Positions 12,804 to 35,348 of a stretch of 64,000 nucleotides of DNA are shown here, piece after piece. The translations under genes were made by a program, and so were the position numbers. Below the pieces are notes generated by a model, which saw nothing but the letters and a program-made list of their open reading frames with translations, did no database searches and was not told the DNA's origin. The number at the start of each line of letters is the position of its first letter. Position 1 is the stretch's first letter. Source of the stretch: an uncultured Muribaculaceae bacterium (GTDB taxonomy: Bacteria > Bacillota_I > Bacilli_A > RF39 > UBA660); the NCBI GenBank assembly GCA_964425325.1, contig CAYRLX010000001.1, positions 10,791-74,790 of the forward strand, written 5' to 3'.

Positions 12804-12868
12804 AAACTTTTGTTTTTTATTTTTATGTTTTTATGATATTATAAATATAAATAGGAAGGAAGAATCAC

Positions 12869-14378: not shown

Positions 14379-15014
14379 ATGAATATTTTAAAAGATGAAA
14401 ATAATAACTATATAAAAGATACAAGTCCATATGAAAAATTTAAAAGAATAGACAATGATATTATTTCATTTTATATGAAATATAATCAATTAAAAAATCT
14501 ATATAGACAAGGGTGGCTAAAAGTGCGAATTGGCTTAGAACACAAAGAAAAATGTGAATCAGTTGCTGATCATTCATTTTCAGTCGCACTGCTATCTTTA
14601 ACAATAATAGAAAAAGAAAAACTACCACTAGATGCATTCAAATGTATAAAAATGGGGATTATACACGAACTAGGTGAGATATATGCAGGAGACTATACTC
14701 CGTATGATAATATAACAAAAGAAGAAAAACATATTAAAGAAAAAGAAGCTATAATAAAAGTATTGAATACTTTAGATAAAGAAAATGATTTTTTAGAATT
14801 ATGGGAAGAATTTGAAATAGGAAAAACGGAAGAAGCTAAATTTATTAAAAGTGTGGATCAATTAGAATTTTTATTACAAGCGTGTGCATACGGTTATGAT
14901 GCAAAATATTTTAAAAAGTGCATAGAAAAAATTGATAATTATTATTGTAAAAAAATAGCTAAAGCAGCTATTATAAGTACAAATGGAAATAAAAAGCCAA
15001 AAATAGTAGATTAA
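14379..15014 (+). CDS. HD-domain hydrolase (YfbR-like 5'-deoxynucleotidase family)
   Basis: ESVADHSFSVALL ... IHELGEIYAGDYTP ... SVDQLEF gives the H..HD..D pattern of HD phosphohydrolases of the YfbR type. Confidence 0.65.
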   Translation: MNILKDENNNYIKDTSPYEKFKRIDNDIISFYMKYNQLKNLYRQGWLKVRIGLEHKEKCESVADHSFSVALLSLTIIEKEKLPLDAFKCIKMGIIHELGEIYAGDYTPYDNITKEEKHIKEKEAIIKVLNTLDKENDFLELWEEFEIGKTEEAKFIKSVDQLEFLLQACAYGYDAKYFKKCIEKIDNYYCKKIAKAAIISTNGNKKPKIVD

Positions 15015-18697: not shown

Positions 18698-18726
18698 TAA
18701 AAAATTATGATAGTAGAAGGTGTTAT

Positions 18727-20571: not shown

Positions 20572-20592
20572 ACATGTAAGTTTATCTTTTTT
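20566..20592 (+). terminator. Rho-independent terminator
   Basis: AGATAAAC / GTTTATCT stem followed by TTTTT, overlapping the stop codon. Confidence 0.6.
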
Positions 20593-20654
20593 AACATTAG
20601 TTTGAAAAAGAGAATATTAATTGTTATAATCAACATTAGAAAAGGAGTAATAAC

Positions 20655-21155
20655 ATGTTAAAAATAAATGGCTATGAATTCGATATAAAAGAGTCAAGCA
20701 TAAATATAACCCCTTTATTTTATGCCGGAGAAGAAATATGTAAAAATGCTTATATTTTTATAGAATTTCACGACAAGAAAATAAATAATAAAACAAGAGG
20801 AGGAACATTTAGTTTTGTTATAAACAATATTTCTTTAAATGATAAAAATGAAATAATTCTTAGAAAGTACGAAAATAATGAGGAAAACGAAAAAGAAATA
20901 TATAAAAATATAAGTCATGAACTAGAAAGAATTGACACAGTTAGTTTAAAAGCTGATTATTCGACTAATATATTAGAAATAGATAATCTATGGAATGCAG
21001 ATATCTTTGATAGTAAAGCTTATATAAACTTTATCGAAAAAAAAGAAAATGAATATGTAATAAATTATTTAACTGAATTTAAAATAGAAGAAATAACACC
21101 TTACGAAGATAAAATTACATTAGAATTTAAAGGGTATTTAACATATTCTAAATAA
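20655..21155 (+). CDS. hypothetical protein (166 aa)
   Basis: RBS AAAGGAG upstream. Beta-rich, no known motif. Confidence 0.6.
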   Translation: MLKINGYEFDIKESSINITPLFYAGEEICKNAYIFIEFHDKKINNKTRGGTFSFVINNISLNDKNEIILRKYENNEENEKEIYKNISHELERIDTVSLKADYSTNILEIDNLWNADIFDSKAYINFIEKKENEYVINYLTEFKIEEITPYEDKITLEFKGYLTYSK

Positions 21156-21188
21156 AAAAAATAAAAGTAAGTTGAAGGAGTTTAAAGT

Positions 21189-22364
21189 ATGAATAAAGAA
21201 GAACTAATCAATAAAATAATCGATATAGTTAATTTTATCACAAACGGAAAAGTAAAAATGTTTAATCAAACATTTAATGGACATCCTTGTTTTTATTTAC
21301 TTCATACGAAAGAAGAACTTAAACAGAAACTAGATAGTATATTAAAAGAAAAAAAATATGACAATTACGACCTTTATTATTATACAAATTATATGTTCAA
21401 GTATATGCTGAATAAATATGATTCACATACTAAAATTAAGTTTATTAATGATAAGTACCTACCAATCAAAATAAAAATTTTTAATAAAATACCATATATT
21501 GTAGACTGCAATAATGAATATAAAAAATATAAAGGAGCTAAAATAATAAAAATTAATGATATTAATATAGATATAATCAATAAAGAGCTTGAAAAAATAA
21601 TTTGCTATCCATCTGATAATTATCTAAAAATAGAATTAGAAAAATATCTATCCGATGTAAATGTACTTAAATCATTACCATCAGTAAATATATCAAATAT
21701 AATTAAATTAAAAACAAATAAAGGTGAAATAATTTTTGATTTAGATAACTTAAGTGAATATAAAGATATAAATATAAAAGAAAACTACAGTTTAGAAATA
21801 ATAAATAAAACAGCACTAATAACATACAACTCCTGCAGAGATGAAGAAAAAATGATAGATCTTATTAACAAACTAAGTAATATGAATAAGATAGATAATT
21901 ACATAATTGATATAAGAGGAAACGGTGGAGGAAATTCAAAAGTTAATAAACCATTAGAAAAATTTCTAAAAAATAAAAAAACAATAGTACTATGTGATGA
22001 AAAAGTTTTCTCAAGTGCTATAATGATATTGATAACTCTAAAAAATCAAGGAGCGATTATCATAGGTACTCCTCCAGCTACATCTATTAATTATTTTGGT
22101 AATTGTGCAATGCAAAAAGAACTAAAAAACATGAATTTAAAAGTAATGGGAAGTGCTACTTATTGGTATTATGATGAAAATTTAAAACTTCATGGATATT
22201 ATAAAGATGATTTTAAAAAAGCACTAAAAGAAAATCCAAATATGATAAAACCTATTTTTATAGATGTAGATAAAAAGATAGAATTAACATTAGAAGATTA
22301 CATTAATAATAATGACTCAGTACTAAATTATGCATTAAATAAATTACAAGGAAAGATGAAATAA
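21189..22364 (+). CDS. S41-family (tail-specific/C-terminal processing) peptidase-like protein
   Basis: IIDIRGNGGGN matches the S41 D(L/I)RxNxGG motif, with a downstream Ser/Lys region (VFSSAIMIL...). No signal peptide. Confidence 0.55.
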   Translation: MNKEELINKIIDIVNFITNGKVKMFNQTFNGHPCFYLLHTKEELKQKLDSILKEKKYDNYDLYYYTNYMFKYMLNKYDSHTKIKFINDKYLPIKIKIFNKIPYIVDCNNEYKKYKGAKIIKINDINIDIINKELEKIICYPSDNYLKIELEKYLSDVNVLKSLPSVNISNIIKLKTNKGEIIFDLDNLSEYKDINIKENYSLEIINKTALITYNSCRDEEKMIDLINKLSNMNKIDNYIIDIRGNGGGNSKVNKPLEKFLKNKKTIVLCDEKVFSSAIMILITLKNQGAIIIGTPPATSINYFGNCAMQKELKNMNLKVMGSATYWYYDENLKLHGYYKDDFKKALKENPNMIKPIFIDVDKKIELTLEDYINNNDSVLNYALNKLQGKMK

Positions 22365-22572
22365 ATGAGAAAAATAAAAGGTAAAGAAATAAACAATTAA
22401 AAAGAAGCAAAAAAAATAAATCTAAAAGAAGTTAGAGTTGATTGTTTAGATAGCAATAAAGCATCGGTTAAAATAATAGAAGCTAATAAAGGAAAGAAAT
22501 ATAAAAGTATATTAAAAAATGGAGAGAAAATAAACTTATATATATTTGAAATATAAAAAAGAAAGGATAAAT

Positions 22573-23115
22573 ATGATAATAAATCACAAAGGAACAAAAA
22601 CTCTTAAGACAGAAAGGCTCATCTTAAAGGCAGTAGAAGAAAAAGATTATAAAAGTCTTTATGAAAATTTGTTTGGAGATAAAGAAGCGTGTGAAATATG
22701 TAAATGGAAATATTGGGAAACTTATGAAGAATTTAAGAAAGAACAAACAATTATAAAGGATAAAAATTATTATAATTGGATAATATATTTAAAAGATAAA
22801 ACACCAGTAGGTATGATTGGGGTCCATACTCAAGATGATAAAAACTATAGTTGTATTATTGGCTACCAAATTCATCCAAAATATCAAAATAATGGATACT
22901 GTACAGAAGCTTTAAAAGAGGTAGCTAGTTTTCTCATAAAGGAAGTAGGATATTACAGATTAGTTTGCGAGTATGAGGATAATAATATAGCATCTAAAAG
23001 AGTAATGGAAAAAGCAGGGTTCATTTATGAAGGAACTAATAGAAGATCAGTATATAAAAATAATAGATTTAAGGATATACACGTTTATTCATTAATCAAA
23101 GAAGATTTAAAATAA
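22573..23115 (+). CDS. GNAT N-acetyltransferase (RimJ/RimL-like)
   Basis: TERLILKAV..., QIHPKYQNNGYCTEALKEV, NIASKRVMEKAGFIYEG. Start placed at ATG 22573, after the RBS AAAGGA. Confidence 0.75.
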   Translation: MIINHKGTKTLKTERLILKAVEEKDYKSLYENLFGDKEACEICKWKYWETYEEFKKEQTIIKDKNYYNWIIYLKDKTPVGMIGVHTQDDKNYSCIIGYQIHPKYQNNGYCTEALKEVASFLIKEVGYYRLVCEYEDNNIASKRVMEKAGFIYEGTNRRSVYKNNRFKDIHVYSLIKEDLK

Positions 23116-23130
23116 ATCAATAGTGTAAAT

Positions 23131-23188
23131 TTGACAAAAATAAAAAATAATATATAATAAGCACTCGAAATTAATTAAAAAGGGAGTG
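23131..23188 (+). promoter_or_regulatory. AATTTGACAA-family promoter plus anti-SD/SD leader hairpin
   Basis: TTGACA 23131-23136, 16-nt spacer, TATAAT 23153-23158. CACTC (23162-23166) pairs with GAGTG (23184-23188) inside the SD AGGGAGTG. ATG at 23195. Confidence 0.6.
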
Positions 23189-23194
23189 AATTAT

Positions 23195-24187
23195 ATGAAA
23201 GCTGATGCTCAAGAACAAAAAAGACTACAAACAATAATGCTAACAAGTGGTTCTTCATCATATGAAACAGACTATTTTAATTCAAATTCATACAATAGTC
23301 TAAGACAGACAATGCATGAAAATTTACCTAAGAGGAATTATGAATTAAATATCCCGCTTTGCTCAAAAAGCGAAGTAATTAATGCTGGAAGATATGTTAT
23401 AGATAAACATTTCGGAAACTTAGATTTAAGGGTTAGATTTGCAGATGGAGACGACATGGAATCACAATTACATGCAATTTTTGGATCTAATCCTGCTCCA
23501 GATAAATATGAAGATATAATAAGATATATAAACAATCATATTTCTCTTTTGAAAGTAACAAATATTCCAGTTTCTCTAAACTGTAATCAAGAGACAAACG
23601 GGTATGTAAGGTCAACAATTTTTTATAATCCAAATGATATGGAAGAAGAGTATTTTAAAAATCTCCCAGACTGTGTGAGCAAAATAGGATTAGAAGGACC
23701 ATGTAATGAAAATATGAAATGCATGCACGTTCACGAAATGGCTCATGCATTAATTAACAGACATAAAGGAAGCATACAAAACTTGTTAAATGATGAGGCT
23801 TTTTCAATATTTATGGAAAAAGTTGCTGCAGATGATCTTGACCCAGACGGAAAATTACTAGACTTCAAAACAATAATTAGATTATTACAAATAAAACAAA
23901 ATATATTAGATAATGAAGTATTAGAATATAATGAAAGCAACTTCTTAGGAGCACTTCAAGTCAAAAAATATATAATATCTACTCTGCACGCTACCGCACT
24001 TTTTAATACATATTCAAGATCAAGTAAAAAAATTAAAAAAGAAATAGATACATCTTTAGGAAAAGTTATTTGCGGAGAAGATACCTTAGAAAGTGTTTTA
24101 GAACATTATGAAGCTAGCTTAGATAGAGGAACTAGAATAATGAATAGGCAAATAAAAGAATATCAAAAAAAGATTGCCAAGAACTAA
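23195..24187 (+). CDS. hypothetical protein with HExxH zincin motif (330 aa)
   Basis: HVHEMAHALINRH. Start placed at ATG 23195 rather than GTG 23186 because of SD spacing. Confidence 0.55.
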   Translation: MKADAQEQKRLQTIMLTSGSSSYETDYFNSNSYNSLRQTMHENLPKRNYELNIPLCSKSEVINAGRYVIDKHFGNLDLRVRFADGDDMESQLHAIFGSNPAPDKYEDIIRYINNHISLLKVTNIPVSLNCNQETNGYVRSTIFYNPNDMEEEYFKNLPDCVSKIGLEGPCNENMKCMHVHEMAHALINRHKGSIQNLLNDEAFSIFMEKVAADDLDPDGKLLDFKTIIRLLQIKQNILDNEVLEYNESNFLGALQVKKYIISTLHATALFNTYSRSSKKIKKEIDTSLGKVICGEDTLESVLEHYEASLDRGTRIMNRQIKEYQKKIAKN

Positions 24188-24259
24188 GTAAGGTATAAAT
24201 AATACTTTACTTTTTTAATGTAAGCATTTATCATAATATTAGAAAAAAGGAAGTGACCT

Positions 24260-24712
24260 ATGAAAAATTTAAGAGAATTTAGATATGCATTTGTGTACAA
24301 AGATGAAGATTTAACCAAGGGCAAGATAAGTGCAAAATTTACTAAAGAAAAAGAAATAAAGAAAAATATAAAAACAAAAAAAGGATTTGTTATTAACTTA
24401 ATAGCATATAACAGTAAAAATGAGGAATATGAAATTAATATGTTACTAAACTTAGATAAAGAAGAATTAAATAACATGCCTAATAAATTTGTTAATATAT
24501 CTGATAAAGAATGTTTTATTGATTTTTATAGGCCTAATATAAATAACGTTCCTACTATTGGATTAAGTAGAGTTGATGATTTATATTCAAATCCAGGAAA
24601 TATATGGGTACTAAAAGAAAGTGATAATACATACTTTTTTAAAATATCTATTCCAGAGGAAAATCTATTTATATGGTTTTATTTAGAAAAGGATATGATA
24701 GTGAATGAATAA
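24260..24712 (+). CDS. hypothetical protein (150 aa)
   Basis: RBS AAGGAAG upstream. Overlaps the next gene by 8 nt (ATGAATAA). Confidence 0.6.
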   Translation: MKNLREFRYAFVYKDEDLTKGKISAKFTKEKEIKKNIKTKKGFVINLIAYNSKNEEYEINMLLNLDKEELNNMPNKFVNISDKECFIDFYRPNINNVPTIGLSRVDDLYSNPGNIWVLKESDNTYFFKISIPEENLFIWFYLEKDMIVNE

Positions 24713-25256
24713 TAAAGAAGAATATTTTAAAGCACAAATAAAACTTAACAATTTCTATAATTTATATAACTCAATAGATAAAAAAACTAACAAAAAAATA
24801 AAAGATATATTTGATTATAAAAGAATAAAAGATAATACTTTTATATTCGATAAATATACTTCTATTCTCTATGAAGAAATGATAAATATTATTTATGATT
24901 GTTTCAAATTTCAATTACAAACAATTTATAAACTATTAAATAACAAAGAAGAAAATAATATTAAAACAATTATTAATGACATGCCAGTTCAAATAATAAA
25001 TGTAATCAATAAAAGCTTATTTGATGAAATTAAATTAGAAGATTTTATAAATATTAAAGAAGAAAAAGACAAACCTACATTATATTATGTATCTACATGC
25101 TGCGATTACTTAATGGATATATTAGAAATGTTCTATGAAACTGAGAAGTATGAAAAAACAAGAGAAAAATTCTTACAAAGAGATGAAGGAATAGAAGAAA
25201 AACAAGTATTAGACCTAATAAAAGCAAATAAAGGTAATAATAAAGTAAATAAATAA
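24705..25256 (+). CDS. hypothetical protein (183 aa)
   Basis: Translationally coupled to the 24260-24712 gene. Confidence 0.6.
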   Translation: MNNKEEYFKAQIKLNNFYNLYNSIDKKTNKKIKDIFDYKRIKDNTFIFDKYTSILYEEMINIIYDCFKFQLQTIYKLLNNKEENNIKTIINDMPVQIINVINKSLFDEIKLEDFINIKEEKDKPTLYYVSTCCDYLMDILEMFYETEKYEKTREKFLQRDEGIEEKQVLDLIKANKGNNKVNK

Positions 25257-25295
25257 AATAATAATGTATTAAAGCATATATAAAAAGGTGATAAA

Positions 25296-25868
25296 ATGAA
25301 TAACTTATATTTAATAGAAGATAGTGAAATGAAAGATATCGAAAAAATAAAAGAATATAATGAAGATTTTATGAGAGCAAACCCTAATTGGATACCATTT
25401 GTTACAGAAGATAATTTTGAAGAATTTTTAAAAGAAATAGAAGATAAAAAACAAGGAATTGGAAATGACGGATTAAAGGAAATATTTTACTGGTTTATGG
25501 AAGAAGGCAAAATAATAGGATCTGGAAGTATAAGATTAAATCCAGAAATAGATGAATATACAGAAAAAGTATGTGGACATTTATTTTATCAAATTATCCC
25601 TTCTAAAAGAGGAAAAGGTTATGGAACTATGCTTTGTCATTTACTTTTAGAAAAAATGAAAGAATTAGGATTCAAAGAAGCATTAATCTCATGTTTTGAT
25701 ACAAATATTGGATCTATAAAGATAATAGAAAACAATGGCGGACAGTTTATAGAATATTATATTGATGAAAATGAACAAAACCCAGAATATAGAAAAAACA
25801 GAAGATATAAATTTGATATTGAAAAATCTTTAGAACAATTTGATATAAAAACAATAATAAAAAAATAA
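25296..25868 (+). CDS. GNAT acetyltransferase (paralogue of the 32288-32893 product)
   Basis: GHLFYQIIPSKRGKGYGTMLCHLLLEKMKELGFKEALISC...NIGSIKIIENNGGQF. Collinear with the 32288 gene product. Confidence 0.7.
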   Translation: MNNLYLIEDSEMKDIEKIKEYNEDFMRANPNWIPFVTEDNFEEFLKEIEDKKQGIGNDGLKEIFYWFMEEGKIIGSGSIRLNPEIDEYTEKVCGHLFYQIIPSKRGKGYGTMLCHLLLEKMKELGFKEALISCFDTNIGSIKIIENNGGQFIEYYIDENEQNPEYRKNRRYKFDIEKSLEQFDIKTIIKK

Positions 25869-25920
25869 TTAACAATTATACTTAAATAAATGATATAATA
25901 AACTAGAAAGTAGGGATATA

Positions 25921-26520
25921 ATGGATGGATTAAATATAACACCAATGGATATCTATAATGAAAACGAAGATGATTTAGATATTGATACTATCATTTATTA
26001 TTTATTAAAAGGTGGAGAACTAGATGAAGTTCCAGAAAAATTTATAACACAAGAACATTTATACTATTCACTCCAAAGTATTTCTGATAAAATTTTAGCA
26101 GGAAAAGGAAAAGAAATTTCACCGGTTGTTACTAAATTCATTCAACGATATTTGGGAATAGGCGCTAAAAAGAAAATAAATAGTAGTAAAATCAGACTAT
26201 CTTATGATGAATATTATGCAGCATCATGGGGTGCTAATTGGTTAAAGTATTTTAGATTTGACGAAAAATATAAAAATGTTAACGGTAAAATAACAACAAT
26301 TAAATACATAGGAGAAGATGGCAGTCAAATAGAAATCACCAAAGAAATGGCTGAAGAAGTAATTAGCATATTAATTGAAAATGATATACAACCTATTAAC
26401 TGTATAGTAAATACTGCACTGTTAAAATATGCAGGCGGTAATTTAGAACAATTAATCACACAAATAAAATCTTATGATAATTATAAAAGTGAAACAGAAA
26501 AAAATGCTAGAAGACGATAA
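25921..26520 (+). CDS. hypothetical protein (199 aa)
   Basis: ORF with upstream purine-rich RBS (AGTAGGGA). No motif. Confidence 0.55.
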   Translation: MDGLNITPMDIYNENEDDLDIDTIIYYLLKGGELDEVPEKFITQEHLYYSLQSISDKILAGKGKEISPVVTKFIQRYLGIGAKKKINSSKIRLSYDEYYAASWGANWLKYFRFDEKYKNVNGKITTIKYIGEDGSQIEITKEMAEEVISILIENDIQPINCIVNTALLKYAGGNLEQLITQIKSYDNYKSETEKNARRR

Positions 26521-26565
26521 AGTCTCCTAGTATTTTTTTATATAAAAAAGGTAATTAATGTGAAT

Positions 26566-26633
26566 TTGACAAAAACATAAAAAAGCTTATAATAAACACC
26601 CGAAATTGAAAGATTTATATCTAAAAGGGGTGT
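26566..26633 (+). promoter_or_regulatory. AATTTGACAA-family promoter plus anti-SD/SD leader hairpin
   Basis: TTGACA 26566-26571, 16-nt spacer, TATAAT 26588-26593. ACACCC (26596-26601) pairs with GGGTGT (26628-26633) in the SD. The leader shares C(T/C)CGAAATT with the 23161 leader. Confidence 0.6.
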
Positions 26634-26638
26634 TATAA

Positions 26639-27988
26639 ATGACTGAAGAGTTATATAACAAGTTGAGTTTGTATAAAGATTCAATCTTGTGTCTTAGATT
26701 TAACTCACTTGAAAATATGAATACGGAAGAAATAAAAAAACATTTTGAAAAAAGTATCACTAATATTAAAAACATACTAAATAATATTCAAAATGACAAA
26801 AACATTGATGTCTTTATTAACATAATTACAGAAATAAAAATAGAATTAAGAAGAGAATTACTAGAAGAATGCCAGGAAAAGGCAGCTGTAATGAACCAGT
26901 ACGGAACGCAGTATATTGGAGCAGAAGACTATAATCCGATACTAATAAGAAATTACTTAATAGAATTATGTGAAAATACAATAAAAGAAGTATTAAATCC
27001 ACAAGAAGATGAAGAAATAGATGAAATTGAAGAAGCAAAAACAAATAAAATATACTTATATTCATCAAAAATGCCGAAGTCAAAAAATGATTTTAAATCA
27101 TTGAAATTGATTAGGGAAGATTTAGAAAGCATACCAGATGTATACTACGGATCTTTCCAAACAATAATTAAAGAAATGCATTCTGGAATTTGCGATGGAA
27201 GAGAACATAAATGTAAAGTACTTAACAATTCTAAATTGGGAGGTACTCGTGAACACAGAGCGTACCATGGAGTTCGTCTATATGAAAATACAATTCAAAC
27301 ATATAATAATAAAATTAGAAAAAAAATAAAAAGTTTAGAAAAGGAACTAGGTGCTGAAATACACTTTGTATATAAATTAGAAATAAAAAAATGTAATCAA
27401 ACTAATGGACTTGATGAAGAACGTGAAAAAAGGTATAAAAATGAGAATAATAATTATGAGGAACTCATAGAAAGTTTAACAGCAGATGATGTTAAAAGAT
27501 TAGCTGATGAAACATATGAAATAATAAATAAATATCTAGAAGACAATAAAAAAGATAAAACCAAAGAAGAAATAGATGAAGAAATCACACTATATACTGT
27601 AATAGATATCATAAATACTTATTTACACACTAACTACAATTTAAATAATAATTCAGTATTTGAATTTACTGAAGAAAGAGCCATAGAAAATGAAAGATAT
27701 CAAATATACAAGAGAGTTTTAATTTATCTCAACTCTAAAGAACTAGGAGAATTAAAAGAATTATCAAAAATATTTAACTCAATTGATAACAACAATAATG
27801 ATAATTGTTCTGCGGATAAAGAGAAAGATATAATAATATCAATAATTATGTACTTATTAAGAAAAATGACTCTAGAAGAATTAAAAGAAACAGAAATAAA
27901 CATTTTATTGTTAATAGACTATAAAGATGAATATTTAATAAAAGACCAGACACAAAAAGAGGAGGGCGAGTATGGTAGAAAGTCATAA
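26639..27988 (+). CDS. hypothetical protein (449 aa) with a possible RelE/ParE/Gp49-like core
   Basis: aa 137-245: IYLYSSKMPKSKNDFKSLK...IREDLESI...KVLNNSKLGGTREHRAYHGVRLYE...IHFVYKLEIKK. This resembles the toxin-fold sequence pattern (..L.g..g..E.R....G.Rl.Y). The match is weak and made by eye only. Confidence 0.5.
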   Translation: MTEELYNKLSLYKDSILCLRFNSLENMNTEEIKKHFEKSITNIKNILNNIQNDKNIDVFINIITEIKIELRRELLEECQEKAAVMNQYGTQYIGAEDYNPILIRNYLIELCENTIKEVLNPQEDEEIDEIEEAKTNKIYLYSSKMPKSKNDFKSLKLIREDLESIPDVYYGSFQTIIKEMHSGICDGREHKCKVLNNSKLGGTREHRAYHGVRLYENTIQTYNNKIRKKIKSLEKELGAEIHFVYKLEIKKCNQTNGLDEEREKRYKNENNNYEELIESLTADDVKRLADETYEIINKYLEDNKKDKTKEEIDEEITLYTVIDIINTYLHTNYNLNNNSVFEFTEERAIENERYQIYKRVLIYLNSKELGELKELSKIFNSIDNNNNDNCSADKEKDIIISIIMYLLRKMTLEELKETEINILLLIDYKDEYLIKDQTQKEEGEYGRKS

Positions 27989-28700
27989 AAAAATTAAAAA
28001 CATTGAAAGCAACAATAGAAAATCAAAAAAATATAGATTGTTAACTGACTCAAATATTAAATATGCCGTTTTTGAGGAAAAAGATTTAAATACACGTTAC
28101 TTCATGTACTTTGTAAAAAAATACTGCTTAAGTAATGGAATTAAATTTGATATAAAGAATTTTGATAATAAAGAATTTACAGACTGGATACATGAATATA
28201 TACAAATCACAAATGATTATGCTAAATTTTTAACATCATATGACATTGATTTAAACTGCCCTTCTCTAGCAGAAACAGGAAAAGGAAAATTTGATTCAAT
28301 CATAGGACCAGAAGCAAGTGAAATATCTATTTTCTCAGAAATAATGGAAAGACCAAAAATAATTTTTGGAGATGTTGAGAAAGGACTATTAATACATGAT
28401 AATAGAAGAATAATAACATTAGATGATTTAAATATAGATACATTAATAACACAAAACCCAAACTTCTTCACTGAAGTGGAAGACTTTACTACATTTGCGA
28501 ATAGTCTAAACAAAAATATTACTTTTGGAGTATATGGTAATTTTAGCGATAAAGATATAAAAAATAAGACAAATATGATAAAAAGACTTTTGGAAAACAC
28601 AAGTGACACAATATTCGAGTATGACACATTTAAAGATTGTTTCTATATGTTAGTTACTACAAGAAGACAAAAAATAAAAACTAAAACATTAAGTTTGTAG
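27972..28700 (+). CDS. hypothetical protein (242 aa)
   Basis: Overlaps the upstream gene by 17 nt. RBS GAGGAGGG. Confidence 0.55.
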   Translation: MVESHKKIKNIESNNRKSKKYRLLTDSNIKYAVFEEKDLNTRYFMYFVKKYCLSNGIKFDIKNFDNKEFTDWIHEYIQITNDYAKFLTSYDIDLNCPSLAETGKGKFDSIIGPEASEISIFSEIMERPKIIFGDVEKGLLIHDNRRIITLDDLNIDTLITQNPNFFTEVEDFTTFANSLNKNITFGVYGNFSDKDIKNKTNMIKRLLENTSDTIFEYDTFKDCFYMLVTTRRQKIKTKTLSL

Positions 28701-28711
28701 AAGGTGAAAAG

Positions 28712-30337
28712 ATGAAATATTTATTAGATGATGATGTATTTAAACTTACATATTTATTCAAAGATAAAAATGTCATATTTGAATTTGAACTATTTTGTAC
28801 TTTTAACAATATACATACTATTAGTGACCTTTTGAAACATGGAGAAAAAGCAAGAAATGAAAGAGCTTTAAAAGAAATAATAGAAGAATTTAAAAATATA
28901 AAATTAAAATTTGATGATGAATTAACTGAGAAAGAATTAGAAGAAAGAAATAGTGAAAGGAAAAGGATAGAAATGGAAAGCAGAAGAAAAAGAGCTCAGG
29001 AAAGAGTAGAAAAATTATTAAAAAAAGAAATAGAAACATTAGGCTTACCATCAGGTATAAACAGAAAACTAAGAGCTCGTGAAATATATAAAATACATGA
29101 ATTGATTGATGGTTCAAGCTATATATTTTTTGGACAAGATTCGACTATTTTTAAAGAATCAGAATTAAATAAGATAATAAAAGCATTAAAAGAACATGGA
29201 TTATACCTTAATATGCTAAATCCAGTAACCGAAACCCTTGATGTAGTATCATCAGTCGATTTAGAACCAGATACTATAAGTCCAGAAAAAGCATCTAAAA
29301 CAGAGAAGGCAGTGCCAGCTGAAAAGAGAAAAAGAGTAAAATGGGAAGATCGTATTAATTATATAAAAGTATTTTATAATTATTTTGGACATACACTTAT
29401 TTCTGAAAAGTTTACAGCAGCAGACAACATAGGTAAATGGGTTGCTACTACACGAAGTGCTTGGAAAAACGGAAAACTATCAGCAGAAAAAATCGAAGAT
29501 TTAGAGCAAACTGGTATGTCAAAAGAAGGAATAGGAATTAGTTCTGAATCAAAAACAAGAATGTTAAAATCTCTAAATATAAGAAAAATAACAATAAAAG
29601 AAAAAATATTATATACATATTATATTGATGGAACTATAAAGTCTACAACAGATGAAGAGTTTATTAAAATGTTAAGAGGAGAAGAATTGCAAGAAACAAA
29701 TGAAGGTATAATTGACATTCCAGATGAAATAATGGAGGCTGTTAAAAATAGCAGTGAGCCATATACAGACGAAGAAATGGAAATATTGATGCAGCAAGTA
29801 TTTGAAACAACTCCAGATGAGGAAGTTATGGAAAGTACTGAAGAATTAGAAGATGGAACAAATATAAAATTAGTGCCAGAGCAAGAAGAACATTCATTAG
29901 ACTTATATTCACTAATGCAAGCAAGAATAGAAGAGATGATGGCTAAAAAACAAGCCATCTCAGAAGAAAATGAAATAAAAAGATTTTTAATAGAAGAATA
30001 TAGAGACAAATTATTACATGAATTAGATAGTTTAATTCAAGAAAGTATGCAGTTAGACATAGAAATAAATAGCATTATTGGAATAAATAATAGTATAGAG
30101 GCTGCTATTACGTCACAAACATCCGGTGAATCCCAAGAAACAGCAGAACAAATAAAACAACAAATCGAAGAAATAACAGAAGAAAATGAAAGAAAAAAAG
30201 CACTAATTCAAGAATATAGAAAAGTAGAAGAAGAACTAAAAAGAGTTCAAAATGAAAGTGAAGAATTAGATTCACAAATAACTTTCATATCTAATCAAAC
30301 AGACGAAAGTAAAGTTAAAAAGTTGGGTGAAAAATAA
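28712..30337 (+). CDS. protein with RpoA-CTD-like HhH segment, helicase-associated (HA) domain and acidic coiled-coil tail (541 aa)
   Basis: - aa about 105-165: ETLGLPSGINRKLRAREIYKIHELI....ELNKIIKALKEHGLYL (alpha-CTD-like pattern).
- aa about 210-270: WEDRINYIKVFYNYFGHTLISEKF....IGKWVATTRSAWKNGKLSAEKIEDLEQTGM (HA-domain pattern W..y..L..f....GH...p......lG.Wv..qR......L...r...L...G).
- C-terminal 170 aa are rich in E/Q/I heptads. Confidence 0.55.
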   Translation: MKYLLDDDVFKLTYLFKDKNVIFEFELFCTFNNIHTISDLLKHGEKARNERALKEIIEEFKNIKLKFDDELTEKELEERNSERKRIEMESRRKRAQERVEKLLKKEIETLGLPSGINRKLRAREIYKIHELIDGSSYIFFGQDSTIFKESELNKIIKALKEHGLYLNMLNPVTETLDVVSSVDLEPDTISPEKASKTEKAVPAEKRKRVKWEDRINYIKVFYNYFGHTLISEKFTAADNIGKWVATTRSAWKNGKLSAEKIEDLEQTGMSKEGIGISSESKTRMLKSLNIRKITIKEKILYTYYIDGTIKSTTDEEFIKMLRGEELQETNEGIIDIPDEIMEAVKNSSEPYTDEEMEILMQQVFETTPDEEVMESTEELEDGTNIKLVPEQEEHSLDLYSLMQARIEEMMAKKQAISEENEIKRFLIEEYRDKLLHELDSLIQESMQLDIEINSIIGINNSIEAAITSQTSGESQETAEQIKQQIEEITEENERKKALIQEYRKVEEELKRVQNESEELDSQITFISNQTDESKVKKLGEK

Positions 30338-30474
30338 TGACAGATGAAGAATTAATGCAATTATCAGAACAGCAATTACAAGAACTAATTAAAAACACAA
30401 AACTAGAAATAGAAAAAATAAAATTACAAAATTTAAAAAAGAAAATAATCATTAATGAAACTTTAAATAACTAA
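30337..30474 (+). CDS. small coiled-coil ORF (45 aa), not in the ORF track
   Basis: Its ATG overlaps the TAA of the upstream gene (TAATG). It encodes MTDEELMQLSEQQLQELIKNTKLEIEKIKLQNLKKKIIINETLNN. Confidence 0.35.
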   Translation: MTDEELMQLSEQQLQELIKNTKLEIEKIKLQNLKKKIIINETLNN

Positions 30475-30499
30475 AAAAAATGATATATAGGTGGATTAT

Positions 30500-30893
30500 A
30501 TGGAAAGCTATTTAAAATATGTTATATATATAATTGACAAAGATGGGCGTGAATTTTATGTTCCAACAAACGAAAACTATCATAAACACATACAAGCATT
30601 TAAAAAATTGTAATCTGAAAATACATCATTGAATTTAGATAATTATATAAATTATAAAGGGACCAACAATATTACAGGTTATGAGTTAGTATCACTTCTT
30701 GGAGCAAATGGAAACATAGTATTTTTTCATACAGATGTAGCAAATTATATAAAAATAAAAAAGAAGGAACAATTATAATTCCAAATAATCTTACTAATAT
30801 ACAAAAGAAAAAACTAATAGAATTAATTGATAATTTAAATAAAGAAGAGTTTTCATTTTATGTTACTGAATCAAAATTTAAAAACAATAAATA
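30500..30893 (+). pseudogene. decayed gene (in-frame TAA at 30611 and a frameshift near the A-run about 30752-30765)
   Basis: RBS TAGGTGGA plus ATG 30500. Three consecutive reading segments give coherent protein-like sequence: MESYLKYVIYIIDKDGREFYVPTNENYHKHIQAFKKL * SENTSLNLDNYINYKGTNNITGYELVSLLGANGNIVFFHTDVANYIKIKK / GTIIIPNNLTNIQKKKLIELIDNLNKEEFSFYVTESKFKNNK. Confidence 0.45.
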
Positions 30894-31254
30894 ATTTAAA
30901 ATTGTACATACTCCAATAAAACTTGCATTATTCCACAAAGAAAGCTATAATGAAAAAAAGATAGAAAGTAGGAATAAAAAATGCAAGAATAAGAAAATGA
31001 TGAAATAATAGAAAAAACTATCTAGAAAAACACCCCATAACAATTATTGGCATATGCCGAGGACAGTCACACTAAGTGATAGTGGAGATTATGAAGATAT
31101 GGTAAATTCACTTAATGAATACTTTAAAATAGTACAAAAAATAGATGAATTTGGTGAAGAAATTGAAGGGGATTTTAGAGATAGAATTAAAAAATAAGTA
31201 AGTAGTTAAAAATATAAATGAAAATGAATAAAATAGATTAATTAAGGAGAAAAT

Positions 31255-32199
31255 ATGGAAAATAAAGATAATGTTACAAGAAGAGGGTTTTTAAAATTAG
31301 TAGGAGGCCTAACAGCAACAGCAGTAGGTTCATCACTTACTGCATGCAAAGATAATTGGTTAGATAAAATTGATGAAGAAACTATATACGATACAGCATT
31401 TCATAATGGAACTGATTCATTATTCGACGATATATACAGAGATTATCATAAAATTCAGCTAACTTCATACCACCAAGGAGAAGAAACCACAATAGATTTA
31501 TTAATTCCAGACGCAAGTAACATGATGGAAAAAAGTATAGAAATGAATAAACTATTTGAAAAAAACGCAAAATTATTAAAACGTTTTGATGATGAAGATA
31601 TAAATATAACAATAGAAACTGAAAATGAAGCAATTGAATTAAATTTAGAAGAAGTGGAATCATTATTTGAAGATTTAGCCGATGACTCGCTAACAGATCA
31701 AGAAAAAAAACAAAGTACAAATATTTTGAAATATCTAGAAAAATATTATAAAACATGGATTGATAAAAATAATTTTATAGTAACAGAAAACCTATTACTA
31801 ATACTTTTTAAAAGTTACGGCTGTGAGTTAGAAAATTTAAACCCAGAAAATTATGACCAAGTTGTAGTTAGTCCAAGGCACGAGCCAAGCGATTATTATA
31901 CATTAACGGTAAATAGACCATCTGAAAAAAAAGAAGAAGCTACATATAAAATAGGCGAAAAAGAATCAGGAATTGTTTATGAGTGCTTAGATTCATTATA
32001 TAAATGTCAAGATATAATTATTGGCGAAAACGTAGGATATGAAAAATCAGAAGAAGAAAAAAATGATATTTTAGAAAATGCTATTCATAATATAAAATGT
32101 GGAATATTATGTGGTGTAAAAGCAGAAAATGGAATATTATTACAAGGACAAGAATTAACTAAAGAAATAATAGAAGATCTAAATTCTAAAAAACTATAA
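31255..32199 (+). CDS. Tat-signal lipoprotein of unknown function (314 aa)
   Basis: MENKDNVTRRGFLKLVGGLTATAVGSSLTAC carries a twin-arginine motif (T-R-R-G-F-L-K) followed by a lipobox (LTAC). The mature part is similar to the lipoprotein encoded at 34461-35348. Confidence 0.7.
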   Translation: MENKDNVTRRGFLKLVGGLTATAVGSSLTACKDNWLDKIDEETIYDTAFHNGTDSLFDDIYRDYHKIQLTSYHQGEETTIDLLIPDASNMMEKSIEMNKLFEKNAKLLKRFDDEDINITIETENEAIELNLEEVESLFEDLADDSLTDQEKKQSTNILKYLEKYYKTWIDKNNFIVTENLLLILFKSYGCELENLNPENYDQVVVSPRHEPSDYYTLTVNRPSEKKEEATYKIGEKESGIVYECLDSLYKCQDIIIGENVGYEKSEEEKNDILENAIHNIKCGILCGVKAENGILLQGQELTKEIIEDLNSKKL

Positions 32200-32210
32200 G
32201 AAAACATAGA

Positions 32211-32242
32211 AAGAATAAAGAAAAAAACTTTATTCTTTTTTT
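32211..32242 (+). terminator. Rho-independent terminator
   Basis: AAGAATAAAG / CTTTATTCTT 10-bp stem, A7 loop, T-run. Confidence 0.7.
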
Positions 32243-32287
32243 GCTAAATAATAAATAAGAATGTATAATGAAAATAGGAGGTAAAAA

Positions 32288-32893
32288 ATGTATGATTTAT
32301 ATATAAGAAAAATAGATGAAAATGATTTAGATAAGATGATCAAAGTAGCTATAGATAAATATAATCATGGAGAGATTAGCAAAGAAAAATATTTAAAGTG
32401 GATTAATGCTCATAATACAGATTTTTTTAGTAAATATTTAGAAAGAATGAAAAAGAGAGAACTTGGTCAAGGCGAAGGAGAAATAAAAGGAATTAAATTC
32501 TATAATTTTTACCTAATAGATAATGATGAAATAATAGGCATAGGTAGAATTAGAACACATTTAGAAAATAATGATTATTTTAATAAATACTCTGGCCACA
32601 TAGGATATACAATAATTCCATCAAAAAGAAAACAAGGATATGGGACTATACTCCTGCACCTCCTTCTGCAAAAATGCAAAGAACTAAACCTAAAAGAAGT
32701 AATGGCTGTCTGTCATGTTGATAATAACGGTTCACAAAAAGTAATTGAAAATAATTTAGGAAGTTATATGGATACAGTACTAGATCCAATAGATAATGAA
32801 CATTATAAAAGATATATTATAGATGTAGAAAAATCATTAGATAATTTTAAAATGAATAAAGAAGATGAAACAAATGAAAAACATAGAAATTAG
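32288..32893 (+). CDS. GNAT acetyltransferase (paralogue of the 25296-25868 product)
   Basis: GHIGYTIIPSKRKQGYGTILLHLLLQKCKELNLKEVMAVCHVDNNGSQKVIENNLG. Confidence 0.7.
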   Translation: MYDLYIRKIDENDLDKMIKVAIDKYNHGEISKEKYLKWINAHNTDFFSKYLERMKKRELGQGEGEIKGIKFYNFYLIDNDEIIGIGRIRTHLENNDYFNKYSGHIGYTIIPSKRKQGYGTILLHLLLQKCKELNLKEVMAVCHVDNNGSQKVIENNLGSYMDTVLDPIDNEHYKRYIIDVEKSLDNFKMNKEDETNEKHRN

Positions 32894-33908
32894 AGATAAA
32901 AATATAGTAGCAACTGTAGACTATAGAACAGAACTTCTAGGAATTATAATGTGGCTAAGTGACTACCACACATTATTGCCAGAATGTTTTAAAATATATG
33001 AAAATAAATTTTATATAGATAATATTCTAGAAAAATTTTCAAAATTTAAAAATGAGGAAGTAATTAAAGACTTTATGGAACTAGTAAAAAAACACCAATT
33101 TACTTATGATGCACCTTACGCATTATTTCTAGAGCTAGATGATCATTTTAAATGTGATAAATTAGATGATTATATATTTAAGGAAAGACTAGAAGAAGAT
33201 TCATCAATATATGAATTTATAAATAAATTAGAAAATTTTGCTAAAAAAATAAAATTTGAAGAATATTATAATAGTAATAAAGAACTCTATAAAAAATGGA
33301 CTACCTACATATTAGACTGTTTTAAAAAAGGTAATGTATTAAATTTTTATAATGATTATTTTGGGTATTCAAATAATGAATTTTATCTAAACTTAATCCC
33401 GTTCGCATCCGATGGCTCATTTTCAGCATCAATCGGTAATAAAATATACGATATGAATCCAGTTACCGAAGATATGAAAAAGGATAAATTGTTTGAAAAA
33501 AATAGATATGAGAGCGTAATAAACGCACCTATTCATGAATTTTTACATGGATACGTAAATCCAATAACAGAAAAATTAAACTTATTAAATCTTAATACCA
33601 ATCTATTTGATAACATAAAAGAACAAATGAGCATATACGGTTATCCAACAGATGTAGAAATAATAAATGAACATTTAGTTAGAGCAATTCAAATTAGATA
33701 CATAATAAAAGAATATAATGATGAAAAATGGGCTGATAGTGTTACAAATTGGGAAGAAAAGCAAGGATTTATTTATATAAGAAATATATTGGAAAAACTA
33801 GAAGAATTTGAAAATAATAGAGATAAATACAAAAATTTCGAAGAATTTTACCCAGAAATTATAAATTACCTAAAATCAATAAAAAAAATAAAGCGAACAA
33901 AGAAATAA
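32865..33908 (+). CDS. HExxH zincin-like protein (possibly DUF4932-like), 347 aa
   Basis: INAPIHEFLHGYVNP. Overlaps the GNAT gene by 29 nt (alternative start ATG 32874). Confidence 0.5.
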   Translation: MKQMKNIEIRDKNIVATVDYRTELLGIIMWLSDYHTLLPECFKIYENKFYIDNILEKFSKFKNEEVIKDFMELVKKHQFTYDAPYALFLELDDHFKCDKLDDYIFKERLEEDSSIYEFINKLENFAKKIKFEEYYNSNKELYKKWTTYILDCFKKGNVLNFYNDYFGYSNNEFYLNLIPFASDGSFSASIGNKIYDMNPVTEDMKKDKLFEKNRYESVINAPIHEFLHGYVNPITEKLNLLNLNTNLFDNIKEQMSIYGYPTDVEIINEHLVRAIQIRYIIKEYNDEKWADSVTNWEEKQGFIYIRNILEKLEEFENNRDKYKNFEEFYPEIINYLKSIKKIKRTKK

Positions 33909-33977
33909 GATTAAAATCATATAGTAATATCAAGTAGTAGATCTTTTAAAATGTAAAAAAAGACATTTAGTGTGAAT

Positions 33978-34030
33978 TTGACAAAAATAAATATTAGTAT
34001 TAATATATCCTCCTGTAAACAAAGGGGGAT
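33978..34030 (+). promoter_or_regulatory. AATTTGACAA-family promoter plus anti-SD/SD leader hairpin
   Basis: GTGAATTTGACAAAAAT with TTGACA 33978-33983, 17-nt spacer, TAATAT 34001-34006. ATCCTCC (34007-34013) pairs with GGGGGAT (24024-34030 region, i.e. 34024-34030). ATG at 34037. Confidence 0.55.
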
Positions 34031-34036
34031 TTTATT

Positions 34037-34444
34037 ATGGAAAAAACTATTATAAAACCAGGTATAGTACTAATAAAAAAAGATGGAATCATATATGAGT
34101 TAGATAAAAAGACACTTCAAACAATTAAAGCAATAGTATTTGATACTGACTGTAATTTATGTAAACTATGTAATAATACAAAGTGTAAGTTATCAAAAAA
34201 AATTGAAGATGAATTTATAACTGATGCATTGACATTGAAAACAAAACCAAATTGTGAATATGTACTTGGATGCGATAATTTTGAACTAAAAGGGCAGTAT
34301 AACGATGCTCCAAGACTAGTATGGTTTAGTACAGATTTTGAAGAAGAAATGAATGATGATGAAATAACAATTAGACATTATAATGAAGCTCATGTTCATC
34401 ACATAGCTCATCCAACTATCGCAAGACATATTGATAAAATATAA
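34037..34444 (+). CDS. small Cys-rich protein (135 aa), family with the 56615 and 56897 gene products
   Basis: DCNLCKLCNNTKC ...KKIEDEFITDA... VLGCDNFE. The same LCxxCxxxxC...(V/I)(L/T)(D/G)C(D/P)(N/D)(F/Y) pattern occurs in the other two. Confidence 0.6.
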   Translation: MEKTIIKPGIVLIKKDGIIYELDKKTLQTIKAIVFDTDCNLCKLCNNTKCKLSKKIEDEFITDALTLKTKPNCEYVLGCDNFELKGQYNDAPRLVWFSTDFEEEMNDDEITIRHYNEAHVHHIAHPTIARHIDKI

Positions 34445-34460
34445 TAATAGGAGGAAAACA

Positions 34461-35348
34461 ATGAATAAAATAATAGATAAGGTTACATCTATAGGAATCA
34501 CACTAGCTCTAAGTACAACTTTAGGGTTATCAGCATGCGCTAAAAAACAAAATAATTACATTCCCATGAGTGAAATTTTCTATGATGAAAACAATGAAGG
34601 AATGGATGATATATTTGAAAAAAGAATATCAGATAGTTATGAAAAAATACAAGATATACAGAAAATAGAGAGAAGTATTGACTTAGTTAAAAAGTTAAAC
34701 GAAATGGATTTTAAAGATGTACCTGAAATTAATTTAAATATACCAGAAGATGAAATATATTTTATAAACTTAGATATAGTAGAAAGTATATATGAAGAAT
34801 ATCAAATAATGACAGATGGAAAAATTGAACTAACTGATTCACATAAGTTAGAACAATTACAAAATATGAAAGAAGAATTATATAAATATTATGTAATGCT
34901 AAATATGTATATCAATAAATATGGTTATTCTGATATAAGTAGATTTGGAAAAAGCTTATATAAGGCAATTATTTTAGATACAGCAGACCTTTGTGGTAGT
35001 GAAAAAAACGTTGAAGCAAAAGTAGATATTTCATCAGATAAAGAATATCATCAACACATTGCTACATACACACTATCAGAAGATAATTTTAAACAGTTTG
35101 ACATAAATTCGAATTCAAACTTGTGTACTTTGATTAGAACTGTAGGTGAATTCGAAAACCATGAAACACCAAAAGAATCTGATGTTTATTCAGAATATAA
35201 TGAAGAAGAAATAGAAAAAATGGAAGATGCAATAGAACTAATTAAAGAATGCATTTATACAAACTATGAACTAAAACATCATGAATTTCTATTTGCTAAG
35301 GGAAATGACAAATTAGTTAGTGGGAAAACAAACGTACCAACAAGATAA
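34461..35348 (+). CDS. lipoprotein of unknown function, paralogue of the 31255-32199 product
   Basis: Start moved to ATG 34461 (RBS TAGGAGGA). Signal peptide plus lipobox: ITLALSTTLGLSAC. Motifs YD...G.D.(I/L)F and VES(I/L)(Y/F)E(E/D) are shared with the 31255 gene product. Confidence 0.7.
   Translation: MNKIIDKVTSIGITLALSTTLGLSACAKKQNNYIPMSEIFYDENNEGMDDIFEKRISDSYEKIQDIQKIERSIDLVKKLNEMDFKDVPEINLNIPEDEIYFINLDIVESIYEEYQIMTDGKIELTDSHKLEQLQNMKEELYKYYVMLNMYINKYGYSDISRFGKSLYKAIILDTADLCGSEKNVEAKVDISSDKEYHQHIATYTLSEDNFKQFDINSNSNLCTLIRTVGEFENHETPKESDVYSEYNEEEIEKMEDAIELIKECIYTNYELKHHEFLFAKGNDKLVSGKTNVPTR

Follow-up and report, generated by a model that had tools for sequence, protein, structure and literature searches.

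DNA binding by the helicase-associated (HA) domain has been reported (Mills et al. 2013, cited through PMC12191111), and PMC12191111 describes the domain as a DNA-binding or specificity module fused to antiphage-type phospholipase D (PLD) nucleases. Among described systems, the restriction-modification (R-M) arrangement, that of type I R-M in particular, is the closest in logic to the locus reported here, although membership fails on every sequence criterion; such systems combine a methyltransferase, an effector and a DNA-recognition subunit that has conserved coiled-coil regions. The locus is a four-gene cassette in a 64,000-nucleotide stretch of DNA from an uncultured bacterium (assembly GCA_964425325.1, contig CAYRLX010000001.1, positions 10,791 to 74,790; this whole stretch is hereafter the window, and coordinates refer to it). 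We tentatively regard it as an accessory, diversifying, DNA-directed conflict module, serving phage or mobile-DNA defense or exclusion and of a kind not yet described, a reading in which our confidence is less than even. The four genes are as follows.

26639–27988, + strand: gene 1, an open reading frame (ORF) of 449 amino acids encoding an orphan protein
27972–28700, + strand: gene 2, an ORF of 242 amino acids
28712–30337, + strand: gene 3, an ORF of 541 amino acids, predicted to encode a multi-domain DNA-binding protein with a coiled-coil tail
30337–30474, + strand: gene 4, an ORF of 45 amino acids encoding a helical peptide

An earlier analysis made from the letters of the DNA (the sequence-only reading) had placed four tightly coupled ORFs behind a consensus promoter at 26566, and it was exact on both counts. 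Genes 1 and 2 overlap by 17 nt (junction −17), genes 2 and 3 are separated by 11 nt (+11), and genes 3 and 4 overlap by a single nucleotide (−1, TAATG), with a Shine-Dalgarno-like sequence at the start codon of each of the four. No membrane segments occur in any of their products. Two elements lie upstream of gene 1.

26507–26539, + strand: hairpin and T-run closing the upstream 199-aa gene, seen in the sequence (terminator-like match at 26507–26530)
26566–26593, + strand: sigma-70 consensus promoter TTGACA-16-TATAAT, a 12/12 match

This promoter is the sole 12/12 match across the 5.6 kb searched (25800–31400). The total of promoter-like matches over that interval is not above that of shuffled sequence, and therefore only the perfect site carries weight. 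Together with an extended GTGTMAATTTGACA box, the promoter is kept in seven of eight related loci, between which the cassette DNA is only ~67–77% identical, and equivalent hairpins lie 5′ of it in related loci. The hairpin and T-run insulate the cassette as its own transcription unit; the four-gene operon is real and autonomous. A GTGTMAATT box (window 26553–26571) overlaps and extends the −35 hexamer and is conserved in seven loci, with equivalents in the related loci L003, L005, L008, L009, L010 and L012; it could serve as an operator or as an UP-like element.

To establish how the cassette is distributed, we placed its relatives on their contigs. Every relative of gene 1, gene 2 or gene 3 that could be placed sits in a four-gene cassette whose gene order is unchanged and whose junctions are tight, down to 36–40% identity. 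The four genes are thus strictly co-conserved, and the objection that they might not travel together elsewhere falls because the cassette is complete in every placeable relative. Four chromosomal contexts were found.

Context 1: GNAT ... cassette ... DUF3267-cysS-truB
Context 2: rpsL-rpsG-fusA-tuf-Metallophos-cassette
Context 3: mreB ... cassette-Metallophos
Context 4: AAA-clpP-cassette

The family consists of five real clusters at 50% identity among 1.84e9 representative proteins. No relatives were detected in 185,579 GTDB species genomes (two scans), in 50,697 phage and 72,556 plasmid records (tblastn), in 2.9 million IMG/VR viral contigs searched with profiles of genes 1, 2 and 3, or in JGI metagenome contigs (one scan). 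Among the relatives, a name is attached only to an uncultured "Bacilli bacterium" metagenome-assembled genome, and the source assemblies of the relatives carry cohort labels that we take to be those of ruminant gut studies. The cassette is restricted to a few uncultured low-GC rumen/gut bacteria.

A fifth small gene (126–139 aa) follows gene 4 in four related loci (L001 13788–14171, L003 13834–14253, L005 13853–14134 and L008 5850–6230), and three of the four copies carry an ELKAEYxxRVHMENG motif. We considered it as a core member and rejected it because neither the window nor L009 has it. A "YRAHMENG" motif also ends an unrelated 291-aa protein in L001 (14281–15156).

To place the evolution of the cassette against that of its surroundings, we compared the window with L003; the two are very close relatives, as judged from flanking housekeeping proteins. 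Protein identity is 97% for cysteinyl-tRNA synthetase (CysRS), 94% for TruB and 96% for polynucleotide phosphorylase (PNPase), against 53% for gene 1, 56% for gene 2, 56% for gene 3 and 96% for gene 4. At the DNA level, identity is ~67% across 26525–29905 and 85–94% outside, and it leaps to 94.5% at position 29905, inside gene 3 (at about amino acid 398), remaining high through gene 4. Nonsynonymous and synonymous divergence between window and L003 (dN/dS, given as paired values) are listed below.

Gene 1: 0.34/1.26
Gene 2: 0.29/1.26
Gene 3, N-terminal part: 0.46/0.78
Gene 3, tail: 0.04/0.12
CysRS: 0.016/0.38
TruB: 0.027/0.29
PNPase: 0.019/0.60

Nonsynonymous divergence therefore reaches 0.29–0.46 in genes 1 to 3 (the gene 3 tail apart), against 0.016–0.027 in the housekeeping genes, with dN/dS ratios of 0.23–0.59 against 0.03–0.09, and the synonymous divergence of the cassette is ~2–4 times that of its flanks. 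The rise in both substitution classes, together with the sharpness of the boundary, points to recombination having exchanged old allele blocks, with constraint either weak or diversifying. Identity matrices revealed that gene 1, gene 2 and the N-terminal part of gene 3 share the same allele groups, while the tail of gene 3 and gene 4 reassort independently: these last two are inherited together, separately from the rest.

The recombination mosaic within gene 3 spans 29905–30474 of the window and 13246–13811 of L003, where the last ~143 codons of gene 3 and the whole of gene 4 are 94.5% identical in DNA. A further family member, P0021, joins an L003-type N-terminal part of gene 3 to a P0011-type tail.

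Comparison of sister strains revealed that the presence of the cassette is itself variable. In L095, whose flanks are 82–90% identical to those of the window, blastn shows that the region from 18.7 to 35.2 kb of the window is replaced by 2.3 kb, which delimits the following feature.

18703–35170, no strand assigned: variable chromosomal island containing the cassette (blastn of L095 against the window)

The 2.3-kb replacement encodes an unrelated 705-aa protein. Synteny between L009 and both L096 and L098 ends immediately past the gene 4 stop codon; upstream of this point, the place of the cassette (L096 2590–6200, L098 427–4037) is taken by a 987-aa superfamily 2 (SF2) helicase (DEAD/ResIII/SNF2) together with genes of 95 aa and 129 aa. 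Searches of the L095, L096 and L098 loci with the cassette proteins (tblastn) returned no match. The helicase carries about seven tandem HA-like repeats, for which the Pfam matches are only faint, and the helicase set may be an alternative system at the same hotspot. A close kinship between the HA domain of gene 3 and the HA repeats of the L096 helicase was considered, and none was found.

Since sister strains lack the island or carry another gene set at the same site, the cassette is dispensable. In its accessory spread, its excess divergence relative to the flanks, its allelic exchange and the alternative occupant at one site, it behaves as defense or conflict loci do. The sequence-only reading had called the locus fast-turnover, and the excess divergence, the gene decay and the strain replacement bear this out. 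Because the cassette evolves much faster than its neighbors and is missing or replaced in sister strains, these data suggest a module engaged in genetic conflict.

The same population data can be read in another way, which we judge somewhat unlikely: the cassette would encode a lineage-specific nucleoid, transcription or chromosome-organization accessory complex with no immune role. The gene 3 product would then be a RacA-like DNA tether, with a DNA-binding head and a coiled-coil tail, or a mimic of the RNA polymerase alpha C-terminal domain (alpha-CTD) at AT-rich DNA; the target modified by gene 2 would be a partner or nucleic acid, gene 1 would serve as a structural adaptor, and weak constraint in populations of small size would account for the fast evolution. 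Consistent with this account, every context is chromosomal, with the cassette reading in the same direction as housekeeping genes and lying beside tuf, mreB, clpP or cysS, the GC content of the cassette is that of the genome, the promoter looks strong and constitutive, and the host lineage sporulates (SpoVA and SpoIID genes lie nearby); the lack of relatives in phages, plasmids and viral contigs and of matches in PADLOC fits it as well. It accords poorly with the dispensability of the cassette in sister strains that lack the island or hold other genes there, and with the joint diversification of the three variable parts. The ~2–4-fold synonymous excess and the sharp breakpoint in gene 3 likewise point to old alleles having been exchanged, and not simply to relaxed constraint.

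A plastic island with variable gene content and gene decay could also be the resting place of an integrated mobile element, with the cassette fixed there as residual cargo or as a module that once served maintenance, be it partition, regulation or exclusion. Related islands do hold a VirD4/TrwB-like coupling protein, MerR and AraC regulators, KilA-N and Rpn-like proteins and IS605/TnpB fragments, and accessory genes of the His_Phos_1, NUDIX, GNAT and DUF4932 families travel with the cassette. We nevertheless consider this origin improbable: no integrase, relaxase or replication gene adjoins the cassette in any locus, no repeats flank it (searches for flanking repeats or att sites gave only chance-level AT-rich matches), the plasmid, phage and viral collections hold no homologues, and its GC content is not atypical.

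Mobile or selfish pieces were observed in the sister strains at L095 3576–4727, L009 11790–12662 and L096 12446–13249. They include fragments of IS605 OrfB/TnpB (Cas12f-like), a KilA-N protein encoded between truB and rpsO and, in the same position, an Rpn-like helix-turn-helix protein.

To characterize the proteins themselves, we performed profile and structure searches on each product. Two of the three large cassette proteins are orphans at the sequence level; the third, the product of gene 3, resolves into the following parts.

28802–28918, + strand: weaker helix-hairpin-helix (HhH)-like module, amino acids ~31–69 (hhalign E = 9e-4, probability 23%)
28994–29227, + strand: RNA polymerase alpha-CTD-like (HhH)2 domain, amino acids ~95–172 (profile matches)
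29333–29518, + strand: HA domain with no helicase attached, amino acids 208–269 (PF03457)
Amino acids 326–395 of gene 3, + strand: acidic linker preceding the tail, isoelectric point (pI) 4.05
29897–30334, + strand: coiled-coil tail, amino acids ~396–541 (alignment)

The sequence-only reading had recognized an alpha-CTD-like (HhH)2 segment, an HA domain without a helicase and an acidic coiled-coil tail, and each of these was recovered, the last as an acidic linker followed by a coiled-coil tail. With a domain-only profile built from seven diverse members, the top 29 PDB matches were all RNA polymerase alpha-CTDs covering the full domain; the best was 9zum_A (E = 1.1e-5), and about 20 distinct chains matched at E ≤ 1.3e-3. 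The full-length gene 3 profile matched many alpha-CTD chains over one stretch, and PF03118 (RNA_pol_A_CTD) matched one family member (E = 1.3e-4). The profiles therefore support an alpha-CTD-like (HhH)2 domain at amino acids ~95–172, in the sense of a resemblance of fold and family. No match to the RpoA N-terminal domain was found in gene 3, and in the HMMER alignment the Arg of the alpha-CTD VRSANCL segment, presumably the DNA-contacting R265 of E. coli numbering (the "265 determinant"), falls on a non-conserved position; for both reasons we call the domain alpha-CTD-like and not RpoA. The segment at amino acids ~31–69 may be a second HhH-like module.

The HA domain is confirmed by sequence profiles. 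PF03457 matches it at E = 9.2e-11 (42.3 bits, cut-off 28.4), the domain was found in all ten family members (best E = 7e-13), and the family profile also matches the solved HA domain 2kta. The HA and alpha-CTD-like domains of gene 3, like the core of gene 1, are basic. The tail carries two EEN-RK-LI-EYR repeats, with an internal repeat of 171 nt. Gene 4, translationally coupled to gene 3 through TAATG, encodes by far the most conserved product of the cassette (62–98% identity) and is a probable partner of the gene 3 coiled-coil tail.

For gene 2, structural modeling uncovered a resemblance that the sequence-only reading had missed, as it had also missed the hypervariability of the cassette relative to its flanks and its variable presence between strains. 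The AlphaFold2 (AF2) model, built from a seven-sequence alignment, has a predicted TM-score of 0.67 and a core predicted local distance difference test score (pLDDT) of 70–88, and at this medium confidence its strand order agrees with the seven-stranded class I methyltransferase fold. In Foldseek comparison with the PDB, the top 50 matches were all class I S-adenosylmethionine (SAM)-dependent methyltransferases (E ~1e-3, probability up to 1.0, TM-score only 0.30–0.40), including METTL16/METT-10, HemK, RsmG, Bud23 and VCP-KMT, and a viral structure library returned mostly proteins containing methyltransferase domains. The model thus predicts a class I SAM-methyltransferase-like fold. Two motif-like stretches stand out.

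28269–28286, + strand: motif-I-like A100-E-x-G103-K-G105 of gene 2, invariant, directly after strand 1
28452–28463, + strand: motif-IV-like Q161-N-P-N164 of gene 2, directly after strand 4

The motif-I-like stretch is without the third Gly of acidic-x-G-x-G-x-G, and an invariant E117 lies on strand 2. The motif-IV-like stretch occupies the position where amino-methyltransferases carry (D/N/S)PP(Y/F/W); it reads N-P-S in L005, and an aromatic residue comes next in most, not all, members.

The gene 1 product consists of helical N- and C-terminal parts that flank a basic, highly conserved alpha/beta core.

27041–27463, + strand: conserved basic core of gene 1, amino acids 135–275, pI 9.2, the best-conserved part of the protein in alignments

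Its invariant residues include K193, E205-H206-R207, R213, Y215, N217 and N223, and further K246, E248, K250-K251-C252, N256-G-L-D259, R262 and R265-Y-K-N268. We regard the core as a putative active or nucleic-acid-binding site.

The sequence-only reading had seen a RelE/Gp49-like segment in this core. The residues that it quoted are present and are the best conserved of the protein; the superfamily assignment found no support in any profile or structure test. If the core were a RelE/ParE/Gp49-type mRNA interferase, the operon would be toxin-antitoxin-like or an abortive-infection system in which genes 2 to 4 restrain or trigger the RNase. By eye, the pattern IY-F..A..DL..LP ... K.L ... EHR...G.RLYEN ... 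IHFVYK.E.KK does resemble HigB/Gp49-type toxins, the invariant Glu, His, Arg, Tyr and Lys are residues of the kind that would serve in an RNase site, and the secondary-structure order of the low-confidence AF2 model, beta-alpha-alpha-beta-beta-(alpha)-beta, may be compatible with a RelE fold save for one extra helix. The searches went the other way. Gene 1 has no match in Pfam, PHROGs, NCBIfam or PADLOC, and Pfam scans of each member at E ≤ 10 gave nothing relevant. Three profile searches of the PDB, domain profiles among them, matched no RelE, ParE, HigB or YoeB chain and yielded only marginal, unrelated matches (the MSL3 chromodomain at E = 0.02–0.2, and IgG Fc). The profile search of the 1.84e9 representative proteins gathered only the gene's own family and a repeat artefact, with no toxin family, and hhalign of the core against a genuine RelE alignment recovered from viral contigs gave a probability of 0.4%. 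The Gp49 and HigB profiles were compared with gene 1 through the Pfam scans only. In addition, the model falls below a pLDDT of 50 across amino acids 182–212, within the very segment concerned, and the core is embedded in a 449-aa protein, with a helix of ~20 aa inserted and no adjacent small antitoxin-type gene, unlike a stand-alone toxin of ~90–125 aa with its cognate antitoxin beside it. We therefore reject the RelE/ParE/Gp49 identity of gene 1 and hold the corresponding reading of the operon to be very unlikely. PD-(D/E)xK and HNH-like (H206-N217-N223) readings of the core, considered from the residue pattern alone, have no profile support and are tentative leads.

Taken as a whole, these features are compatible with a working mechanism for the proposed conflict module. 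The data themselves establish the architecture of the operon, the domains of gene 3, the strict co-conservation, the hypervariability with its recombination and the variable presence between strains, whereas complex formation, the parts played by genes 1, 2 and 4 and a defense function are inferred. We infer that the four products may form a cytoplasmic DNA-directed complex. Gene 3 would provide the DNA reader and scaffold, binding DNA through its alpha-CTD-like (HhH)2 and HA domains and oligomerizing through the C-terminal coiled coil, which the co-translated gene 4 peptide would cap or stabilize. Gene 2 could supply a SAM-dependent step that marks self DNA or RNA or senses modification; alternatively, it may be a decayed SAM- or nucleic-acid-binding module. 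Gene 1 would be the effector, probably a nuclease or RNase, a proposal made because of its invariant basic patch (E205-H206-R207, R213, Y215, N217, K246-E248-K250-K251 and R265-Y-K). The DNA-binding part of gene 3 would diversify jointly with genes 1 and 2 as allelic blocks, all three sharing a specificity or a rapidly evolving target.

Several findings weigh against a conflict function. No nuclease, ATPase, helicase or other known defense domain was found in any of the four products, and fast evolution with variable presence also fits other accessory functions. All contexts are ordinary chromosomal neighborhoods in which no mobility genes or flanking repeats mark the cassette. The setting is a plastic accessory island and not a recognizable defense island, because PADLOC finds no match in the cassette or in ten neighboring genes (none among those ten at E ≤ 0.01). 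For gene 2, no sequence-profile link to any methyltransferase emerged from Pfam, NCBIfam, per-member Pfam scans at E ≤ 10 or PDB profiles; its motif reads NPN or NPS and not the (D/N/S)PP(Y/F/W) of amino-methyltransferase motif IV (N6-A, N4-C, Gln-N5); and the methyltransferase call comes from a medium-confidence model with modest TM-scores. Because no sequence profile supports the call and the motif differs, we name gene 2 only as having a methyltransferase-like fold. For gene 1, the AF2 model (seven sequences) is poor, with a pLDDT of 57, and Foldseek searches with it returned nothing usable.

The defense-type function that the sequence-only reading had put forward is more plausible in the light of the population findings but stays hypothetical; no nuclease, ATPase or known defense domain was found, and the neighboring genes do not form a recognizable defense island. 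Its statement that no described system has this combination of domains agrees with the negative PADLOC, PHROGs and NCBIfam searches; in PADLOC, the products of genes 1 to 4 have no match at E ≤ 1, as expected if the system is novel. A bolder version of the conflict reading would make the cassette the founding example of a new prokaryotic immune or exclusion system without ATPase or helicase. Such a system would unite three parts: a DNA reader of alpha-CTD-like and HA domains, carried by a coiled-coil scaffold that has the 45-aa peptide as its cap; a highly derived SAM-methyltransferase-like protein; and a novel basic effector domain. The three would diversify together as specificity alleles within one species. 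This version we consider unlikely.

Immediately downstream of the cassette, and outside it, two decayed genes were identified by tblastn with intact L008 genes, in line with the gene decay that the sequence-only reading had described there.

30500–30972, + strand: pseudogene that carries a frameshift and two in-frame stops; the intact gene encodes 168 aa
31016–31188, + strand: internally deleted remnant of a 181-aa paralogue

The two paralogues are intact and adjacent in L008, where they share the motifs YxIxxIDxDG and GY[ED]LA.

The surrounding island holds GNAT acetyltransferases, a DUF4932 gene, a peptidase and many orphan genes. Over its 16.5 kb (18703–35170), three paralogous GNAT genes lie at 22546–23115, 25296–25868 and 32288–32893, the DUF4932 gene at 32865–33908 and an S41-like peptidase gene at 21189–22364. 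The window as a whole is part of a low-GC (~26%) bacterial chromosome, to which the GC content of the cassette conforms; CysRS, TruB, PNPase and FtsK are encoded downstream of the cassette. Across positions 1–64000, coding shows an extreme strand bias, with nearly all long ORFs on the + strand, and GC skew is positive almost throughout, such that cumulative skew climbs almost monotonically. Two tRNA genes run against this trend on the − strand (Leu-TAG at 1853–1937 and Met-CAT at 1940–2016). Two adjacent paralogous genes of the beta-lactamase/penicillin-binding protein family (520 and 491 aa) occupy 11241–14344 and are followed by an HD-domain 5′-deoxynucleotidase-like gene (14379–15014).

If the cassette functions as proposed, it would represent a defense or exclusion architecture invisible to PADLOC and to Pfam-based pipelines, drawn from poorly sampled uncultured rumen and gut Bacilli, and a defined biological role would follow for both the HA domain and a free-standing alpha-CTD-like domain. 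Should it turn out not to be defensive, it still offers a clean natural case of block-wise allelic diversification, with one block formed by genes 1 and 2 together with the DNA-binding half of gene 3, a second by the coiled-coil tail and the micro-protein of gene 4, and a mapped junction between them. With this junction mapped, the specificities of protein-protein and protein-DNA recognition can be tested directly. As the family is tiny and lineage-restricted, its general importance may be limited.

Compared with known systems, the cassette resembles several and coincides with none of them. Its gene order, the sizes of genes 1 and 2 (close to a kleisin of ~450 aa and a MukE-like protein of ~240 aa) and its coiled-coil third protein recall MukFEB, MksFEB and Wadjet JetABC, and MukF chains were the nominal top Foldseek matches for the poor gene 1 model, at a probability of 0.10 and a TM-score of 0.10 that are meaningless. 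Prompted by these sizes and nominal matches, we considered MukF/MukE and JetA/JetB identities and rejected them because of the probability of 0.10, the absence of profile matches (no Pfam or PADLOC match to MukF, MukE, JetA or JetB), the lack of an SMC protein, gene 3 being without SMC ATPase heads, and the methyltransferase-like gene 2, which models as a Rossmann/methyltransferase fold and not as winged helices.

The likeness of gene 1 to RelE/ParE/Gp49-HigB toxins consists of the pattern seen by eye and the low-confidence secondary-structure order; it differs in lacking profile support, in being a large host protein with an inserted helix and in having no antitoxin partner. Gene 3 shares with the RNA polymerase alpha-CTD (PF03118, (HhH)2) a profile similarity over the whole domain of ~70 residues, including both helix-hairpin-helix motifs, whereas it has no alpha N-terminal domain, does not conserve the Arg position of VRSANCL and is a 541-aa multi-domain protein. 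From the HA (PF03457) proteins, namely SF2 helicases and the PLD-HA nuclease fusions found alongside antiphage END nucleases, it differs in having no fused helicase or PLD nuclease and a single HA copy; it resembles them in an HA domain above the Pfam threshold, and a helicase with HA-like repeats (faint in Pfam) stands at the same chromosomal site in sister strains.

The cassette departs from type I R-M in that gene 2 has no sequence-level methyltransferase match and reads NPN/NPS rather than NPPY/NPPF, in that it encodes no HsdS-type target-recognition domains, ATPase, helicase or recognized nuclease, and in that genes 1 and 2 are as variable as the DNA reader, gene 3. In its logic, it parallels type I R-M in three respects. 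The predicted fold of gene 2 is methyltransferase-like, with motif-I-like and motif-IV-like residues modeled after strands 1 and 4 as in amino-methyltransferases; gene 3 joins a variable DNA-binding module to a coiled coil that is conserved, and recombination has occurred where the two meet; and the cassette as a whole is an allelic, strain-variable unit.

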